Source: Nitrospirota bacterium (GTDB lineage Bacteria; Nitrospirota; UBA9217). From it: a stretch of 64,000 nt of DNA. Both the position numbers and the translations under genes were made by a program. Every line of letters starts with the position of its first letter. Position 1 is the first letter of the stretch. Below, piece after piece: positions 30,011-41,567 of this stretch. The stretch spans positions 96,001 through 160,000 of the forward strand of contig CAVTRN010000001.1 of NCBI GenBank assembly GCA_963737155.1, written 5' to 3'. Under the pieces are notes generated by a model, which was not told the origin of the DNA, did not search any database, and was given only the letters and a program-made list of their open reading frames with translations.

Positions 30011-30562
30011 TTACGTCAGGCTTGCAAGTATGGCCTGGAGCCGTGTACCATCATTGTACTCCTCGTTCATCTGTACCACGCCATTCTTATCTATGACAAC
30101 CGTGATTCCCATCGTGGCCTGGTACAGATTCAGAACGGTTTGCTGGGTGTCCGCCAGCACGTCGAATCCCGCTCCGGTATATCCGGCCGCTGTTTCCCAG
30201 GAGAGTGCCTCAGCAACGGATGCGCAGGTGTAGTCTACGACATAAAAACGAACATTTGGAAAGGCGGGAATCACGGTAGAGCGCAGGCTGTCAAGATTGC
30301 CTTCGCATATGGGGCACCACTCCATGGCGAAGTATAAGACAACTCCCTGAGTGGTCGGGATCACGGATGAAAGCGTGATAGTGTTTCCCAAAGTGTCGGA
30401 AAGTGTAAAATTCGGTGCATTCTGACCGACAGCGGGCCCGGTTGTTCCCGCCTGTTCAGTGGGAACTTTGTTTCTGTCTGATGGATCGAGATCGCTCAAG
30501 TTGCCGCATCCGGCAAAGAGCACCAAACTCAGCAGGAACACACACATCTTACCTGAACCCAT
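30011..30562 (-). CDS. Redoxin/peroxiredoxin-like lipoprotein (thioredoxin fold)
   Basis: Lipobox FAGC, APNFTLSD, WCPIC and VVIDKNGVV. Confidence 0.8.
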   Translation of the reverse strand: MGSGKMCVFLLSLVLFAGCGNLSDLDPSDRNKVPTEQAGTTGPAVGQNAPNFTLSDTLGNTITLSSVIPTTQGVVLYFAMEWCPICEGNLDSLRSTVIPAFPNVRFYVVDYTCASVAEALSWETAAGYTGAGFDVLADTQQTVLNLYQATMGITVVIDKNGVVQMNEEYNDGTRLQAILASLT

Positions 30563-31520
30563 AGCTGACTCCTACTGTATAAATTTCAGTTGCCGGAAAG
30601 TTACTGCCCCACCCATTACGCGGTATGGCATTGCTACACGAAACACGGACGACCCAATCACGGTCGGTGCTGGAATAAGCGATAGTTCCTCCGTACGCAT
30701 CCTTCTGGAAACCGCTTTCAGGCTCACTCCTGCCGTTAATGGTCACATTCTCTTCCCGAAGGGTCGATAGCGAGACGGTCCCTGTCAGTGTGTCTCCCGC
30801 CGTACCGATATAATAAATATACCCCAGGGACGCAGCGGCTAATGTGCGGTCCCCCAGTTTTTCCTCGAATGGCTGCACGTACCTATCATACTCGCGGTCA
30901 ACCGGTCGCTGAAGATAAGTCCCGTACGAGAGAGTAACGGAAGCAGTCCAGGGATGTATTGTCTTCGAGATCAGAACATTTCCGTCAAACCGATAGAAAC
31001 CGCGGCCGGTAATATCATAACTGCTCGTTTTATAGTCATAGGGAGATATCCCCGTCGGGATGAGGACCGACGGGCCAATCGTAACTGAGGGCACCAGGTC
31101 CTTCAAGCCCCGAATTTTCCATGCTGATTTGTCCTCCAGGGCTTCATACCAGAGGTTCATCGTCGTGTCGCCTATATTGCTGTAATAGGCAGAACCATTC
31201 GAATATTGGTTGTTATTCCAGACATAAGGAACGCTTATGCTGGCCTGCCAGTTTTGAGCGAGGCGGTGCGCATAGCCGGCATTCAGGCGGTACTGATATC
31301 CTACCGGTGCATACGTGTATACACCCTGTGGGCTCCAAAAACCTTCGTACTTTTCCGAATCAAAAGAAACATCGATCATGCTTTGATATATCTTCGGCAA
31401 CACCAAGGCCGCACCGCCACCGCCACCGCAGCAGGAACCTGCAAAGGCAGGCATTGACAGTAAACATGCGGCCCCCGTTAAGAGGGCCGCATAAATAACA
31501 GTAGAGATATATTTGTTCAT
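30549..31520 (-). CDS. Outer-membrane beta-barrel (transporter-like) with N-terminal SCCGGG motif
   Basis: Signal peptide (AFA), mature N-terminus GSCCGGGGG, GD-x-x-x-x-L and PTG motifs, alternating strands ending in VGVSYGFR. Confidence 0.7.
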   Translation of the reverse strand: MNKYISTVIYAALLTGAACLLSMPAFAGSCCGGGGGAALVLPKIYQSMIDVSFDSEKYEGFWSPQGVYTYAPVGYQYRLNAGYAHRLAQNWQASISVPYVWNNNQYSNGSAYYSNIGDTTMNLWYEALEDKSAWKIRGLKDLVPSVTIGPSVLIPTGISPYDYKTSSYDITGRGFYRFDGNVLISKTIHPWTASVTLSYGTYLQRPVDREYDRYVQPFEEKLGDRTLAAASLGYIYYIGTAGDTLTGTVSLSTLREENVTINGRSEPESGFQKDAYGGTIAYSSTDRDWVVRVSCSNAIPRNGWGSNFPATEIYTVGVSYGFR

Positions 31521-33164: not shown

Positions 33165-33656
33165 CTATCTTAGCATTTCCTCAATTTCTTTTTCGTACAT
33201 CGGCAGAAACTCCTTGCCGAAACCCCGGTGTACATGTTGTATGATGCCGTTTTTGCCTATAAGGAACCCGGTGGGCAGACCGGAAACACGATAGGCGTCA
33301 TTGACACTGCCTCGTTTATCGAGCAATACGGGAAAGTTTACGGGGAATTTGCGAAGAAAATTCTTTACATCCGATTCAGAAGCATCGACGCTGACGGCGA
33401 TGACTTCGAAGCCCTCATGGTTGAACTTTTTATAGAGACGGTCAAGTTCCGGCAGCTCTTCCCGGCAGGGTGCACACCACGCAGCCCAGAAGGCGAGAAA
33501 AACGATTTTTCCCCTAAAGTCGTCGAGACTCACGGTTTTACCGATTGAATCCGTGAGGGTGAAAGATGGCGCGGTTACGAGAAATTGACCGGCATGGACG
33601 GATGCAGGCATTATCATGAGTATAATCATAATCAACAGAAAAGAATATTTGATCAC
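33165..33656 (-). CDS. TlpA-family disulfide reductase
   Basis: FWAAWCAPCREELP, AVSVD, FPVLLD and GLPTGFLI. Confidence 0.92.
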   Translation of the reverse strand: MIKYSFLLIMIILMIMPASVHAGQFLVTAPSFTLTDSIGKTVSLDDFRGKIVFLAFWAAWCAPCREELPELDRLYKKFNHEGFEVIAVSVDASESDVKNFLRKFPVNFPVLLDKRGSVNDAYRVSGLPTGFLIGKNGIIQHVHRGFGKEFLPMYEKEIEEMLR

Positions 33657-33892
33657 AACAATCCTCGGTAAAAATAAGAGATAATTATGACAGCAGGATT
33701 AGCTCTCGCCCATATGTCCTACTGTCAGGAACAAGACTGTAATCGCGTGAATAGGGAGCCTGTCTATGTGCGTCACGGCCGTCGTCACTGTGTCGATTAC
33801 GGACGGAACAAAATTTCTCCAGCCTACGTTCATCTCTTTTTAAGGGATGTGATGCATTTACCCGAACATCCACCCTGTTAATTTTATAATTA

Positions 33893-34039
33893 GTCGTTCA
33901 GGTTTTATAACCATTGTCCCTGTTCTTCGCACATCGAACAAATAAATTATTCCACAGTGATGTCTTGAACTGACGCAATGGCATATGTGCATGCCTCTTA
34001 CGAAAAAACACGGCAACTTTGAACTTTGGTTTTAACGAC
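33893..34039 (-). ncRNA. Structured leader element, copy A (internally deleted)
   Basis: Both ends align to copies B and C, but the ~95-nt hairpin/terminator core is missing. Confidence 0.55.
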
Positions 34040-34041
34040 AA

Positions 34042-34326
34042 TTAAGATTTTGGAGGATGTTCGTCTTGAAAGGCAATTAAGAGAGGTTTAATATGTGGAT
34101 TTACGAATATAGCGCTTTTATCCTGAACAAGAGGCAGATGGCCATAGGGGCATTGATGTAAACAAGGCATGTTCCCGTTGGCAGACAGGGCTGGAGCGGC
34201 TTGATGGCAGACGTCGAGATTGCCGATCATAGCATGATTGCCGTGATCGCTGGGAACCGGGAAAGAGAGTTGAACGGCGATGCTGAGCCCTATTGCTATG
34301 AGCACTATGACAGCTTGCCATTTCAT
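34042..34326 (-). CDS. CutF/CruR(DUF2946)-like leader peptide, copy 1
   Basis: Hydrophobic N-terminus, DVCH, CLHQC (CxxxC) and C-terminal EHPPKS. Paralog at 39008. Confidence 0.75.
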   Translation of the reverse strand: MKWQAVIVLIAIGLSIAVQLSFPVPSDHGNHAMIGNLDVCHQAAPALSANGNMPCLHQCPYGHLPLVQDKSAIFVNPHIKPLLIAFQDEHPPKS

Positions 34327-34332
34327 AGGACC

Positions 34333-34361
34333 ACTATAGATGTTTTCCTGGATGGTGTCAA
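34333..34361 (-). promoter_or_regulatory. Sigma-70 promoter giving a leaderless transcript
   Basis: TTGACA-17 nt-TATAGT-6 nt-ATG, with no Shine-Dalgarno. Confidence 0.75.
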
Positions 34362-36122: not shown

Positions 36123-36324
36123 TAAGCATACCTCAACATAATTTTCCTTTCCGACTGAGTGATCTGGTTTATTCCCAGAATGCCCATTCTGGGAAATGGT
36201 GTTTACACAGATTATAGAATAGTGAATCCAGTATCATGTATTAATCGAATATTAATCATCATATCTCTTCTGGATTTTTTTTATCGTAAATAATGTTCAT
36301 GGAGGGCCTCTTGGGCTTTATTTA

Positions 36325-36565
36325 ATCGTTAGGTTTTATAACCAACATGCCTGTTCTTCGCACTTGAAACAGTAAAAAAATGGCTCCACTTCAGTAATAT
36401 TCCGGTCTTTAATAGTGAGGTCCGGATATGCTCGAAGTGGAGCCAAGCTTAAAGGGGAGGACAGGCTATGAGTCCCGTCCTCGATGATGCCTTGAGTTGA
36501 TGCATGACCCGCACACATGTCTCTCATGGAGAATAACGTCGGTTCTGTCGTTTGGTTTTAACGAC
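36325..36565 (-). ncRNA. Structured leader/attenuator element, copy B
   Basis: Perfect 12-bp stem 36381-36392/36434-36445 followed by U7 on the minus strand. 9-bp stem at 36457-36482. GTCGTT/AACGAY termini. Confidence 0.65.
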
Positions 36566-36657: not shown

Positions 36658-37380
36658 TTACGGCTTTCCCAGGTTTTCCGCAGCAAAATTCCAGTTAAGG
36701 AGTTTGTCAATAACTGCGTTCACGTAATCAGCGCGCCGGTTCTGATAGTCGAGATAATAGGCATGCTCCCATACATCGATCGTGAGCAGCGGTTTCTTTC
36801 CCTGAGTGATGGGGGTGTCCGCATTGCCTGTCTTGATGACCTTGAGTTTGTCTTGATCCTTCACCAGCCAAGCCCATCCGCTGCCGAATTGGGTTATTGC
36901 CGCGGTCGCCAGCTCTTTCTTGAATGCATCCATACTGCCGAATGATTCCTCGATTATTTTCTTGAGCGCAGCAGGAGGCTCGCCACCGCCACTAGGTTGC
37001 ATGCTCTTCCAATAAAACGCATGGTTCCATGCCTGAGCCGCGTTGTTGAAAATCGCAACTCTGTCCGCTTTGCCGGCTACAGCGGCCACGATCTTCTCAA
37101 GAGGCATCTCAGCAAGATCGGTCCCCGCAATAAGTTTATTCAAGTTGTCGACATAGGCTTTGTGATGTTTTCCATAATGGAATGAAATCGTTTTCGCTGA
37201 AATCACTGGTTCCAGAGCATTCTCTGCATAGGGAAGCGGCGGCAACGCCAGTGGTGCAGATGCATTCGCAATGTGCGGAAATCCCGCAACTGCTGCGGTT
37301 ATAGTCACTCCTGCTGCACCGGCAAGAAAATCTCTTCGGGTGACGCCACTATTGTTCTCTCTATGATCTTGTTGTTCCAT
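36658..37380 (-). CDS. sodB: Fe-type superoxide dismutase with Tat signal
   Basis: TRRDFL Tat motif, [27 protein letters not shown] and DVWEHAYY. Confidence 0.92.
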
Positions 37381-37601
37381 CGTGCCTCCTAGTGTTTACA
37401 CAGATGATTATCGTCATTTTTTCACCGGAATGCCCATTCAAGGAAATAGAACCTATTCAGCCTATGGATTGGTGCGTTCCGTGTCGTATATCAAACAGAA
37501 ATGCGCCAGAAAACCACTACGAATCAAAAGAAGTGCAGCAATAGTCAACATACGGTAAATCTGAACACAATTATTTTCGTTAAAAATTAGTGATAATTAT
37601 A

Positions 37602-37631
37602 ACGGGCGGGATAAGCTCCCGCCCGTCTTTT
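37602..37631. terminator. Hairpin terminator after tatA
   Basis: ACGGGCGGGA-TAAGC-TCCCGCCCGT, a perfect 10-bp stem. Confidence 0.7.
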
Positions 37632-37646
37632 CTACAACTTAGGATA

Positions 37647-37874
37647 CTAATTGCCTGAAGGCGGTGCCGTCACGCGAGTGATCTGCTCATCGGTACTTTT
37701 TTGATCGAGGGTAAGTGCGGAATCCTCCTTACCTTCTTTCATAGCCTTTTTAAAGGATTTGATGCTTTTGCCCAAACCTTCACCTAGCTCAGGAAGCTTC
37801 CCGGGACCGAACACGATCAGAACGATCCCCAGGATGATAAGAAGGTGCAGGGGCTGAAATAAGCCTTCGAACAT
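37647..37874 (-). CDS. tatA: Twin-arginine translocase subunit TatA
   Basis: [36 protein letters not shown]. Confidence 0.95.
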
Positions 37875-37937: not shown

Positions 37938-38735
37938 TTATGTGCTAGGTATCGAATCGTAAGTCTGCATTGGCGACGGTGGATTCTGGCCGTGGCAGTC
38001 CGCGCAATTGTTCTGAGAGGTAATGCCGTTAGTGAGAACGTTGTAGAGCGGTTTGTGCTTCGGCTTGTACGTGCCGTCCACATAGGCATTCAGCATCGTC
38101 GTCGCTTCCGCGGCCACATTCGCGGCAAGGCGGGCGCACCGTTCCTGTCTTTCGTTGGAAAGGAATGCCGCACCTTCCGCACGCATCCATTTGCCTACGG
38201 AAATGTGGCATACGGGGGTACCCGCCAAGGTCATATGTTTGATTTGCGCTTTCAGCACCTTGGTCGGCGTGAAGCTCGGCAGCTCCGTATAGGAATAATA
38301 GAATGCAAGGTCGTTGACCATAGCTTCAGCAATGTCGGTGTCTTTGGTCACGAGGCCGATAACCACACCAGCTCCTGGCATGGTTCCGCACAGTGCGCCC
38401 CAGCCCGCCATGCCGCCGTGGGCCCAACGGTAGGCATCGATCGGGAAATTACTCCATCCGGCCGCGCCTTTTTTCTTAAGGTTCTCGGCAAAGCCCGCAA
38501 TGACTGATGAGGTGCACCATTTCGCGAAATAGTTTTCATAGGTTGTCTGTGCCACATCCTGCGGGTTGAGCTTTATATACTTATATGAGGCTGCCCCGGA
38601 ATTTTCATAGGCATCGGATTTTTTTACGGCTTGAAGAACACCCATGGTCGCGATTGCGGTCGCAGCGGCAATTTTGCCGCCATTGACCAACATATCTCTT
38701 CTGGACATTTCTTTTTTATCGTCTAAAGGGTTCAT
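37938..38735 (-). CDS. Split-Soret cytochrome c-like / C-GCAxxG-C-C family protein with Tat signal
   Basis: MSRRDML, GWGALCG, PVCHISV.KW, ERCARL and C-terminal CADCH. AGGAGG before ATG 38735. Confidence 0.8.
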   Translation of the reverse strand: MNPLDDKKEMSRRDMLVNGGKIAAATAIATMGVLQAVKKSDAYENSGAASYKYIKLNPQDVAQTTYENYFAKWCTSSVIAGFAENLKKKGAAGWSNFPIDAYRWAHGGMAGWGALCGTMPGAGVVIGLVTKDTDIAEAMVNDLAFYYSYTELPSFTPTKVLKAQIKHMTLAGTPVCHISVGKWMRAEGAAFLSNERQERCARLAANVAAEATTMLNAYVDGTYKPKHKPLYNVLTNGITSQNNCADCHGQNPPSPMQTYDSIPST

Positions 38736-38762
38736 GAAGGCCTCCTGATAAATTTTTAATTT

Positions 38763-39005
38763 GTCGTTTAGGTTTAATGACCAATGTCTCTGTTCATCGC
38801 ACCTCGAGCTAAAAAATGACTCCACTCCAGAAATATTCTGGTCTTTGAATAGTGAAGGTCGGATATCCCCGAAGTGGAGTCGAGCTTTAAAGGGGAGGAC
38901 AGGCTATGAGTCCTGTCCTCAGTGATGCCTTGAACAGACGCATGAGTATGCGCACATGCTTCTTTTGAAGAAACACGTTAGCTCTGAACTTCGGTTTTTA
39001 AAGAT
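38763..39005 (-). ncRNA. Structured leader/attenuator element, copy C
   Basis: Homologous to copy B with a compensatory change in the long stem (GACTCC/GGAGTC) and a perfect 9-bp stem at 38895-38920. U6 tail on the minus strand. Confidence 0.65.
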
Positions 39006-39298: not shown

Positions 39299-39327
39299 AC
39301 TATAAATACTTTCCTATCGGTTGTCAA
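39299..39327 (-). promoter_or_regulatory. Sigma-70 promoter giving a leaderless transcript
   Basis: TTGACA-17 nt-TATAGT-6 nt-ATG. The hexamers are conserved relative to copy 1 while the spacers differ. Confidence 0.75.
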
Positions 39328-39377: not shown

Positions 39378-40688
39378 TCAAAAGGCTCCGGACTCAATCA
39401 GTTCTGTTAGTGTGGATATATCCACCCCGTAATTAATTTCCGGCTGATTGTCCAATGTGGATTCCGTCCGGAAACACATTAAGTTATCTGCTGGCCATTT
39501 TTTAAACGCAGATCTTTTAATCTTGTGCATAGATTCTGTGAAGAGAATTTTTGCTCTAAGGGCGTCAAAGGAATAACCACGGCCCAATCGATTCATGACC
39601 CTTATTAAATTGTTGAGAGACTCGGTATAAGCGTTCGTGATTTTATGATCAAAGTACGCAAAAATTTCCTCCTGCCAGTTTTCTGTTGCAGTAATTAATG
39701 GATGGTAGGCTTCGAGAAGATTTTGAGGTATGCTCTGCTGCCATCCGTTATATAAGCCAAGCGCTTCGTTTTTGTCTTTTGCATCCCATATATTGAAGAA
39801 TTGCTCTTTAACCTCGTAAACCTCTTTAATATCCTGATAATTGGCGAACCATGTCGCTAGTATAAGTATTTCTTTTGCAGACAAGTCTTTTTGTCTCTTC
39901 AACAAGACGAATCGATCGTGCATGAGTGTTCGACGTTGGGCTGGCGTGAGAGATTGCCGAATTGATTTACGCACTTTTTCAACCGCCTCGTTTGCCATTC
40001 TGACAACATGAAACTTGTCTATGACTATGGTAGCGTCTGGGAATACTGTATTGACAGCATCTCGATAGGGCTTCCACATATCCATTGCGACATATCGAAC
40101 ACGATCTTTACCATCAAGACCGTTTAGATATTTGATGACAGTCTTTTTATTCCGATCAGGTAAGATATTTACGATTGTGTTGTTCTCGATATTGCTGATG
40201 ACAGCTCTGGGTTTCTTAATAATATGAATCTCATCGATACCCATCCACTGTGGTATCTCGAATCGGACTGTTTTTTCAAGTTCGTTCACATAGTCACGAA
40301 AAATGTTCCGTATAGTACCTTCTGCGACTCCAATCTCATCTGCTATGCTTGTGAAAGTACGGCTAAGTGCCTGGCCGCCGACATATTGAACAAGTCGATC
40401 TGTCATTAGTCTTTTGCTATTTATATGAGGCAGTGCTTCAGTAAAGGTTTTACCGCAGCCCCGGCATTTATACCTACGTACGCCGATATACACGCCTACT
40501 CGCTTGCCATGTATCGTCATATCTTTTACAGTGATGTCATCGGACCCATGCCCTACGACATTATTTGATCCGCAGTGAGGGCATATGGTTGACGGTACCT
40601 TGGTCCTCGCATATATATGATAATCATGCTCTGTTTCTTTGAAATTTATGATCTCATAGGCGTTTAGATTGAGAATATTGATAGGCAT
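39378..40688 (-). CDS. ISL3-family transposase
   Basis: Zinc finger CPHCG...CRGCG, GIDE, AMDMWKPY, DKFHVV and TNAYTESLN. Confidence 0.95.
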   Translation of the reverse strand: MPINILNLNAYEIINFKETEHDYHIYARTKVPSTICPHCGSNNVVGHGSDDITVKDMTIHGKRVGVYIGVRRYKCRGCGKTFTEALPHINSKRLMTDRLVQYVGGQALSRTFTSIADEIGVAEGTIRNIFRDYVNELEKTVRFEIPQWMGIDEIHIIKKPRAVISNIENNTIVNILPDRNKKTVIKYLNGLDGKDRVRYVAMDMWKPYRDAVNTVFPDATIVIDKFHVVRMANEAVEKVRKSIRQSLTPAQRRTLMHDRFVLLKRQKDLSAKEILILATWFANYQDIKEVYEVKEQFFNIWDAKDKNEALGLYNGWQQSIPQNLLEAYHPLITATENWQEEIFAYFDHKITNAYTESLNNLIRVMNRLGRGYSFDALRAKILFTESMHKIKRSAFKKWPADNLMCFRTESTLDNQPEINYGVDISTLTELIESGAF

Positions 40689-41050
40689 TAGGATTCGACC
40701 TCCGGCGGCGTGGGAGGTATCAACGGCGCAAGATTCTCTATCAGGTTTGGTACATGAAACGTCACCACACTCCACATTTCATCCACACCAATCTTATCGT
40801 ACTCGTGAACTAGCACGTTGCGCTGGGCAATTATCTTGCGCCAAGGAATTTCAGGATGATGCTTTTTAAACGCCTCCGTCACTTTGCGAGCGGCCTCTCC
40901 GATGATCTCGATATTGCGTTCGATGGCATCACGTAGCACCTCGTTTTCAGCAAACTCCTCCTGTTTTATCCCGTTAACAAAACGGCGGACCTTCTCTGCT
41001 GCCTGAAGCATGTCCAGGAGATATGCGGCATCCCGTTCATTAGGCCGCAT
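40688..41050 (-). CDS. HepT-like HEPN ribonuclease toxin (DUF86)
   Basis: IIGEA, PEIPW and RNVLVHEY (RX4HXY). Stop overlaps the transposase ATG. Confidence 0.92.
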   Translation of the reverse strand: MRPNERDAAYLLDMLQAAEKVRRFVNGIKQEEFAENEVLRDAIERNIEIIGEAARKVTEAFKKHHPEIPWRKIIAQRNVLVHEYDKIGVDEMWSVVTFHVPNLIENLAPLIPPTPPEVES

Positions 41051-41345
41051 ACAGGACCTCCTTTGTCGTGAGGATCGAGTGCCTGCGGAAAGGATTGCTG
41101 ATGGCCTTTTTCTCGACAAGGTCAACTTCTCTTCCAAATATTGCCTTCAGCTCGTCCAGCATGTCCACGCGATTGTCAAACGTAATACTGCCACCCCGCT
41201 CGAACGTCACCAGCACATCCACGTCGCTGTCGGGACGAAAATCTTCCGTGAGTACCGAACCGAACAAAGAAAATTCCTTGATTTTCCATTTGAGGCAGAA
41301 CTCTTCGATTTTTATCATCGGGATTTGAATATTAGTTTTTAACAT
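41040..41345 (-). CDS. MntA-like minimal nucleotidyltransferase antitoxin
   Basis: LFGS-X10-DVD and GREVDLV. GGAGG RBS. Confidence 0.92.
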   Translation of the reverse strand: MLKTNIQIPMIKIEEFCLKWKIKEFSLFGSVLTEDFRPDSDVDVLVTFERGGSITFDNRVDMLDELKAIFGREVDLVEKKAISNPFRRHSILTTKEVLYAA

Positions 41346-41567
41346 AAGTGCCTCCCACACTAGATTACGATTTGAGTATACATTGTCAATTTGTGAATTT
41401 CAACACTATTTTACGATTTTGCCACGATGTGCACAGGGCATTAAACCAGAGGGAATCCACACTACGTTACGAATACCCATTTTAGATAAGTCTGTTCAGA
41501 ATGACATCCGGTTGGAGAAAATCAACTTGTATTCGTGGTTATTGAACTTCTTCTGAACTCGTTTGTT

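Follow-up and report, generated by a model that had tools for sequence, protein, structure and literature searches.

A conserved RNA element shaped like a terminator with a competing antiterminator follows a small leader gene in Nitrospirota

Background

A structured sequence of about 240 nt occurs three times in 64,000 nt of DNA from a Nitrospirota bacterium (GenBank assembly GCA_963737155.1, contig CAVTRN010000001.1, positions 96,001 to 160,000 of the forward strand; the whole stretch is called the window here, and coordinates are positions in it unless otherwise given), which raises the question of what this element does and how its copies arose. The initial annotation placed it on the minus strand and proposed a new attenuator or riboswitch, or alternatively a MITE. 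Judged by its sequence across relatives, as detailed below, the element is a real conserved cis-regulatory RNA and neither a MITE nor a recognised riboswitch. Among the records returned by our literature search, there was no paper on an antiterminator, riboswitch or uORF in Nitrospirota (Nitrospirae), and the element described here would be an RNA switch with a defined S1, S2, S3 and U-tract in this barely cultured phylum.

Results and discussion

Copies of the element and their origin

The three copies (A, B and C, at 33893-34039, 36325-36565 and 38763-39005, respectively) were confirmed by both repeat families and alignment. Repeat families D3 and D4 had three members each and D5 and D6 linked B with C; the mean column identity of the A/B/C alignment was 74%, and B and C, both of full length, were about 77% identical. 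A BLAST search of the whole 4.84-Mb genome added a fourth copy, D, on another contig (G000:C2:2911951-2912062, minus strand; 74% identity over 141 nt), and the other 11 matches spanned 15-44 nt, each with E > 1. The full copies in the genome were B, C, and D (n = 3), and copy A retained both flanks while about 95 nt (alignment columns) with both hairpins were missing. In the features below, S1 is the candidate antiterminator 5' strand, and S2 and S3 are the 5' and 3' arms of the terminator hairpin.

33893..34039, minus strand: copy A, with an S1-like CCAAAGU at 34023-34029; local hairpin and terminator deleted; no match to the covariance model
36325..36565, minus strand: copy B, with a degenerate S1 (CCAAAC, about 36549-36556), local hairpin (36457-36482), terminator hairpin (36382-36444) and U7 (36374-36380)
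36251..36305, minus strand: remnant of the ribosome-binding site and first codons of the gene downstream of C (families D12 and D14; 79-81% identity to 38682-38740)

The copies share flanking sequence, i.e., the start of the downstream gene for B and C, and 300 nt upstream (89% identity) for A and C, and this points to segmental duplication rather than transposition as their origin. An ISL3-family transposase gene (39378-40775) lies directly upstream of locus C, and beyond it is a toxin-antitoxin type pair encoding a HepT-like RNase and a nucleotidyltransferase (40688-41137 and 41040-41360). Mobile DNA beside the duplicated loci may have helped the duplications.

Strand and terminator hairpin

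The placement of the element on the minus strand was borne out by its wobble pairs, model scores, and the side of its U-tract. The compensatory change reported between copies was found again (GGCUCC/GGAGCC in B and GACUCC/GGAGUC in C, a G-C pair becoming A-U), and the minus-strand G-U wobbles were genuine, with four G.U pairs in the stem of C. Across 46 distinct relatives, the long helix contained 123 G.U vs 28 A.C cells and was 86.2% paired on the sense strand vs 75.6% on the antisense strand. Covariance model R1 scored the three full copies of the genome at 91.6, 83.7 (copy B), and 75.6 bits in the sense direction, compared to 20.6-28.8 bits on the opposite strand. Fold energy did not separate the strands (copy B z = -4.25 for minus vs -4.87 for plus). 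The U-tract lies 3' of the helix on the minus strand only, and the neighbouring genes are all on that strand. The following features of copy C served as reference:

38818..38881, minus strand: terminator hairpin (5' arm S2, 3' arm S3), about 20 bp
38811..38816, minus strand: U6 tract, 3' of the hairpin
38895..38920, minus strand: local hairpin (GAGGACAGG / CCUGUCCUC), running into the C-rich CCUCCCC at 38892-38898
38980..38994, minus strand: S1 (CCGAAGU ... GAGCU), starting 13 nt past the leader stop codon

The run of six to seven U residues reported after the stem was present as U7 in B and U6 in C, and the hairpins had predicted energies of -29.0 and -27.4 kcal/mol, respectively. We assessed the helices on two sets of relatives: A8, an unfitted MAFFT alignment of 39 distinct sequences, and a second set of 46 model-aligned sequences. 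On A8, S2:S3 was 89.8% paired vs 41-51% when the partner was slid, double changes occurred in 9 of 19 pairs, and the covariation score was 0.265 vs 0.210 ± 0.010 in shuffled alignments, with none of 500 shuffles reaching 0.265; on the second set, the 86.2% pairing was accompanied by double changes in 11 of 20 pairs. The support was weaker on a first alignment of 23 sequences, where 35 of 500 shuffles equalled the observed score. Much of the helix sequence is plainly conserved rather than varying, and the shuffle counts overstate the support because the sequences are related. At least five U residues within 8 nt past the helix were found in 42 of 46 elements, with a weak U-tract in the other four. 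S2:S3 together with its tract of five to seven U residues has the shape of a conserved intrinsic (Rho-independent) terminator. In two loci, extra sequence is inserted into the apical part of the hairpin (roughly 80 nt in L042 and roughly 150 nt in L025), and the basal helix and U-tract are kept.

A putative competing antiterminator helix

The motif of S1 is CCGAAG(U) or UUCCGAAA, and its core begins 11-25 nt past the leader stop codon. By its conserved complementarity, S1 is the predicted 5' strand of an antiterminator, pairing and covarying with S2. On A8, S1:S2 was 73.5% paired (27-41% when slid), double changes were present in 8 of 17 pairs (equalled in 2 of 500 shuffles), and the covariation score of 0.124 exceeded the shuffled value (0.095 ± 0.007) in all cases (0/500). 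Alignment column 162 (G or A) covaries with both its S1 partner (C-G 15, U-G 12, U-A 6) and its S3 partner. The pairing is kept with other letters in distant loci, including ones from other families, such as CUGAAGU/ACUUCAG in L130 and AUUCCCG/CGGGAAU in L032. Similarly, S1 paired with the S2 of its own locus at -17.8 kcal/mol vs -16.1 ± 0.30 kcal/mol with the S2 of other loci (0 of 5000 permutations), though the rank of the own S2 among 41 partners was broad (0 to 36). Compared to dinucleotide shuffles of the first 50 nt, the S1 pairing was significant (p ≤ 0.05) in 23 of 41 loci, with a median z of -2.07. S1:S2 and S2:S3 exclude each other, so the RNA could switch between stop and read-through.

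How a leader ribosome might be coupled to this choice is less direct. At 11-25 nt past the stop codon, S1 is outside the expected footprint of a ribosome paused on the PP codons or on the stop codon, and simple steric masking therefore does not explain the coupling. We searched the final 48 nt of the leader gene for an anti-antiterminator pairing with S1 and found none (median z +0.89, with no locus out of 41 below -1.65), nor did we find that the leader ribosome would mask an RNA segment through 1:2-type pairing or overlap. In minimum-energy folds, the PP codons paired with the Shine-Dalgarno sequence of the next gene in 21 of 30 loci; selected pairing was rejected as a candidate, as synonymous recodings matched its energy (-9.95 vs -9.84 kcal/mol; 4 of 30 loci at or below the 10th percentile), which indicates no selection on it beyond that on the amino acids.

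Between S1 and the terminator there are one or two local hairpins, one of them formed from an alternating purine-pyrimidine tract, and the unpaired stretch CCUCCCCUUUAAGCUCG is highly conserved. The second hairpin of the initial annotation, reported to keep an identical loop, does so in B (36457-36482) and C (38895-38920), and this part of the claim stands; copy D and most relatives have other hairpins in its place. At least two module orders were recognised in this region, and the number and order of the modules differ between clades. The distance from the stop codon to the model region, which starts about 30 nt before the terminator 5' arm, fell into two classes (37-42 nt and 57-92 nt, with one locus at 247 nt), and in the short-spacer class the C-rich tract lies in the loop of a covarying hairpin, YUUCC-UCCCC-GGAAR. 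A Cys/His mini-ORF in the purine-pyrimidine tract of A, B, and C was also considered and dropped, since inspection by eye found no conserved frame or start in relatives.

The leader gene and its promoter

Upstream of A, C, and D is a 94-codon ORF, which is thus present in three copies in the genome:

39008..39292, minus strand: leader gene of copy C, 94 codons; hydrophobic N-terminus, D-V-C-H motif, ends in ERPPKS-stop
39299..39327, minus strand: promoter of locus C, TTGACA-17-TATAGT, 11/12 consensus matches; start codon 6 nt past the -10
34042..34326, minus strand: leader gene of copy A, 94 codons, 83% identical to that of C; promoter TTGACA-17-TATAGT at 34333-34361

The leader protein had no Pfam or NCBIfam match, and its homologs in public sources are annotated only as "hypothetical protein". 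A hydrophobic N-terminus is common to all homologs, as are D38, C40, P54, and P91-P92, and H41 is nearly invariant (D-x-C-H). The C-terminal motif is [RHQD]PP, and exactly two codons separate PP from the stop in all 50 homologs; the Cys-to-PP distance is 51 residues in 44 of these and 49-50 in the others. The prolines are encoded by differing synonymous codons (CCU, CCC, CCG, and CCA), from which it follows that the constraint acts on the peptide. In an AlphaFold model of the leader (mean pLDDT 55.4), helix 2-17 was the only confident part.

A TTGACA-like box, a spacer of 16-18 nt and TAnnnT, followed by the start codon after 5-9 nt (mostly 6), were found at 47 of 52 leader loci, and a Shine-Dalgarno-like tetramer preceded the leader gene at only 2 of 52. 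A promoter scan of the window ranked the sites at 39327-39299 and 34361-34333 on top (11/12 matches). Because the start codon adjoins the -10 and Shine-Dalgarno sequences are rare, the leader mRNA is probably leaderless. The promoters belong to a conserved block, AAAATTAGAACTTTAC-GTTGACA-N17-TATAGT (39299-39327, 34333-34361 and loci L016-L066), and its A/T part upstream of the -35 could be a UP element or an operator.

Distribution, linkage to the leader gene, and decayed copies

The initial annotation did not recognise the element as a known riboswitch, and Rfam likewise gave no match at gathering score over the window and nothing relevant at E ≤ 5. A generic scan of downstream regions for a hairpin plus T residues was too noisy, and we used the covariance model instead. 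Model R1 matched 37 of the 64 genomes of the family. A sample of the phylum gave 18 matching genomes out of 151, among them 14 of 27 in the same family, with 2 of 8 and 1 of 1 in two further Nitrospirota families and none in the remaining 19 families of the sample. For 41 of the 42 sense matches examined, a homolog of the 94-codon gene lay upstream on the same strand at 37-92 nt (247 nt in one case), the exception being copy B. Conversely, among 48 leader-gene loci from other genomes, 30 had a model match (two of them weak) and 18 had none, suggesting that the leader gene also works without the RNA element. Leader homologs were found in 31 of 61 related genomes searched (the window's own included) and in 28 of 36 within the family (own genome left out). 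Sequence comparison shows the conservation, the strand, both covarying helices, and the link to the leader gene.

The model distinguishes complete from decayed units, which can be used in annotation. Copies C and D are complete units, and copy A, with its terminator and local hairpin lost, would read through. As for B, the initial annotation had correctly noted that it has no leader ORF, in that no leader gene was found upstream, and had proposed on this basis a stand-alone 5' UTR behind an extended -10. We did not recover this -10 in the promoter scan of the window, and the 5' UTR reading is not supported, B being a partial duplicate of locus C, with a remnant of the downstream gene, no leader gene, and a mutated S1. 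The terminator hairpin of B is intact with its U7; S1 is mutated to CCAAAC, and the best upstream pairing is -12.9 kcal/mol vs -17.7 kcal/mol in C. Judged from these features, copy B is most likely a truncated duplicate without an antiterminator that would just terminate the transcript of the superoxide dismutase (SOD) gene. The pairing of the termini described at first (GUCGUU/AACGAY) is found in A and B only and is missing from C and the relatives, and hence does not hold as a feature of the element.

Comparison with known leader systems

The closest precedents are two small exported leaders with a Cys motif, a C-terminal proline stall motif, and downstream copper genes, CruR and CutF (PMC9426467, PMC9973294), and such copper-sensing leader peptides acting during export were described only recently. 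CruR (Bp2923, DUF2946) is the leader of cruR-bfrG-bp2921 in Bordetella pertussis, where copper-responsive, Rho-dependent termination occurs before the TonB receptor gene, and operons of its family include genes for Sco, PCuAC, AhpC/TSA, and TonB-receptor proteins (PMC9426467). Like CruR, the gene studied here is a small gene in first position with a putative export signal, a fixed spacing between its Cys motif and a proline motif near the C-terminus, a poorly structured prediction, and a long structured intergenic region on its 3' side. CruR controls transcription termination before the next gene, and the predicted terminator/antiterminator likewise precedes it here. The two differ in that CruR is Rho-dependent, while here a hairpin and U-tract are accompanied by a competing antiterminator; that CruR has CXXC and an RAPP three residues from the end, both absent from the leader family, which has D-x-C-H and a PP two residues from the end; and that the arrangement here is leaderless, occurs in Nitrospirota, and mainly targets split-Soret-like C_GCAxxG_C_C proteins. 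The DUF2946 model (PF11162) matched none of 21 leader family members at E ≤ 10 and gave no hit for the window protein. Language-model look-alikes of the leader were DUF2946, DUF6660, and DUF6769 (0.93, with 91-114 of 256 features in common), which are weak leads.

CutF of Rhodobacter capsulatus (cutFOG) and the "CutF-like proteins" (PMC9973294; bioRxiv 10.1101/2025.02.05.636593) have a published definition that covers size, a PP at the C-terminus, a signal peptide, and a downstream gene close by (PMC9973294). In size, PP position, and distance the leader compares well, being 94 aa long, with the PP of all 50 homologs two residues from the end and well under 1000 nt from its stop to the next gene; as to a signal peptide, it has a hydrophobic N-terminus modelled as helix 2-17. 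Like CutO, the protein encoded downstream frequently has a Tat signal. When CutF stalls, a stem-loop that covers the ribosome-binding site of the next gene is melted, i.e., translational control (PMC9973294), whereas here an RNA shaped like a terminator and antiterminator lies 120-190 nt past the stop codon. Nitrospirota are not mentioned in the main text or the two small supplementary text files of PMC9973294. By analogy, the 94-codon gene would work like the CruR and CutF leaders, to which it is likened by this rule set and not as a member of a sequence family. A sequence-unrelated leader family with a terminator/antiterminator RNA would represent a third read-out mechanism, beside Rho and the unmasking of a ribosome-binding site.

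Two further groups of systems share part of this layout. Ribosome-mediated attenuators, i.e., the trp/his type, BmrB-bmrCD (PMC4191407), and the proline-codon leaders mgtP/mgtL (PMC3641672, PMC5299641), have a translated leader ORF followed by mutually exclusive antiterminator and terminator hairpins, as predicted here; in the mgt leaders the proline codons are the sensed step, and the present leader also has conserved prolines. In all of these, the regulatory codons overlap the first RNA segment and the ribosome masks the RNA directly, while S1 here is situated past the expected footprint and pairing of the 1:2 type was not found; moreover, the leader, with 94 residues and putative export, is no short cytoplasmic peptide. 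The RAPP-type arrest peptides (SecM, ApdA/ApdP, and the RQH family; PMC10987492, PMC12992588) resemble the leader as small secretory or membrane proteins with an R/H/Q-x-PP-like extreme C-terminus upstream of a regulated gene. They differ from it in that the leader has no Ala/Gly between R/H/Q and PP, in that its targets are not Sec or YidC, and in that arrest is putative here.

A proposed mechanism and its alternatives

From these lines of evidence, we propose that the element is a terminator/antiterminator attenuator serving a CruR/CutF-like stalling leader peptide, a reading that we hold to be somewhat probable. Of the two possibilities raised initially, the attenuator is thus retained in view of the conserved terminator shape and S1:S2, and the riboswitch is not, given the Rfam result, the varied modules, and the tie to the leader gene. 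Mechanistically, transcription would start from the near-consensus promoter at or beside the leader AUG, and the leader would encode a small exported Cys/His peptide ending in PP-x-x-stop. After the stop codon, the RNA would present in order S1, one or two local hairpins, the C-rich CCUCCCC, the S2:S3 hairpin of about 20 bp, and the U-tract. If S1:S2 forms, RNA polymerase would read into genes for exported proteins of redox or copper type; if S2:S3 forms, transcription would end after the leader gene. A ribosome pause on PP might set this choice, as proposed by analogy with CruR and CutF, and the copper or redox state encountered by the nascent Cys/His segment on its export might modulate this pause. 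We infer termination and switching, the role of the ribosome, and the signal sensed; that the leader ribosome sets the switch is suggested by the fixed PP-x-x-stop ending together with the CruR and CutF precedents.

A stronger version of this attenuator, which we consider possible and rather doubtful, is a nascent-chain sensor of the envelope, in which a leaderless Cys/His peptide, exported during its translation, would pause at PP according to the copper or thiol-redox state of the periplasm, and the pause would act on S1:S2 just beyond the ribosome and gate split-Soret-type cytochromes, TlpA-like redoxins, TatA, and superoxide dismutase. If true, Rho-independent termination would here be coupled to an arrest peptide for the first time, the leader family would be new, and the target genes would form a redox-defence regulon of anaerobic Nitrospirota.

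Other explanations account for parts of the same data. The hairpin might be an unregulated terminator of a small gene, whose 3' UTR acts as a small RNA or as a cis anti-Shine-Dalgarno sequence, with CCUCCCC pairing to GGAGG sites. Small RNAs derived from 3' UTRs have a precedent in the CpxQ type, the C-rich tract lies just upstream of a U-tailed terminator hairpin and, in the short-spacer class, in the loop of the covarying hairpin described above, and all downstream genes have strong GGAGG sites. We nevertheless regard this as unlikely, because it leaves unexplained the conservation of S1 and its covariation with the terminator 5' arm, and when the read-through RNA was folded to minimum energy, only 3 of 30 loci had the Shine-Dalgarno sequence and the C-rich region paired. 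A more improbable alternative still is a ligand- or metal-binding riboswitch, in which S1:S2 would be a P1 helix closing a junction with internal hairpins, and a ligand would stabilise P1 and prevent termination. Hairpins enclosed by a long-range helix in competition with a terminator are indeed the usual layout of an ON switch, and the high conservation of the unpaired CCUCCCCUUUAAGCUCG would suit a riboswitch. The lack of an Rfam match even at E ≤ 5, the variation in module number, module order, and spacing class, unlike a fixed ligand pocket, and the near-constant company of the leader gene (41/42) speak against it, and the authors of the CruR study considered riboswitches ill-suited to copper (PMC9426467).

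The same low probability applies, in our judgement, to a terminator/antiterminator worked by an RNA-binding protein, Rho or another factor and not by the leader ribosome. With S1 outside the expected ribosome footprint and no anti-antiterminator found, such a trans factor might bind S1, the hairpin of alternating purines and pyrimidines, or the C-rich tract; the genes next to the loci examined include no candidate RNA-binding regulator, however, and the fixed PP-x-x-stop and fixed Cys-to-PP spacing point to a translational role. Finally, the presence of three to four similar copies in one genome would suit a MITE, and a plus-strand feature, such as a small ORF (MSPVL...) behind the plus-strand GGGGAGGA, might be read from the plus-strand GGAGG and ATG in B, C, and D. 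Both are highly improbable. R1 had only three matches in 4.84 Mb, in the same context and orientation; 41 of 42 matches examined follow one gene family in one orientation; and the flanking gene sequence common to B and C indicates segmental duplication. The plus-strand ORF was rejected, as an opposite-strand GGAGG with a start codon occurs in only 11 of 48 elements and the wobbles and scores favour the minus strand.

Genes downstream of the element

The genes that the switch would gate were compiled. In locus C, they include:

37938..38735, minus strand: first gene, encoding a Tat-signal C_GCAxxG_C_C / split-Soret-cytochrome-like protein
37647-37874, minus strand: tatA, after the split-Soret-like gene
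36658-37380, minus strand: Tat-signal Fe/Mn SOD, after tatA

Locus A is followed by genes for a TlpA-like redoxin, a lipoprotein, an outer-membrane protein, and another redoxin, a SCO1/SenC gene lies between the downstream sets of loci A and C, and the gene downstream of D encodes a redoxin. Over all loci, 43 first downstream ORFs were found, of which 33 were scanned after leaving out the two window copies, near-duplicates, and doubtful starts. These comprised 18 C_GCAxxG_C_C proteins, five AhpC/TSA-redoxins, two beta-propellers, one TonB plug, one Phenol_MetA_deg outer-membrane channel, and six with no family. The distance from the end of the element to the next start codon was 17-123 nt (30 loci), and up to 345 nt among doubtful starts. 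The potentially co-regulated set, with its Tat-exported split-Soret-like cytochromes, thiol-disulfide oxidoreductases, Sco, SOD, and outer-membrane channels, points to a regulon for copper or oxidative stress in the periplasm. In Nitrospirota, the genes under the predicted switch are probably those that handle redox and copper in this compartment.

Several smaller features were seen among these genes. A 45-nt A/T-rich repeat (78% identical) occurs at 33647-33691, before the TlpA-like redoxin gene, and at 37559-37603, before the Tat-signal SOD gene; with its GATAATTAT-like dyads, it could be a Fur/PerR-type operator or a promoter common to both genes. Between tatA and the SOD gene, a scan detected a 10-bp GC-rich hairpin (37602-37626) that is flanked on either side by T-rich sequence and resembles a terminator on the plus strand; it may split the C operon before SOD. 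In some outer-membrane-type proteins encoded downstream of leader units, the signal peptide is directly followed by a Cys cluster (GSCCGGGGG, CASCGC, or GLCCQ), and one of them matches Phenol_MetA_deg:

30549-31520 in the window; 2-862 in locus L003; 216-1229 in locus L039: outer-membrane-type proteins with a Cys cluster

Given their Cys clusters, these proteins may be metal-binding channels of the same regulon. At one leader locus without the terminator element (L028), a small exported protein with a C-K-Y-C-G-M motif is encoded about 100 nt downstream, a motif that resembles that of NosL-type copper chaperones.
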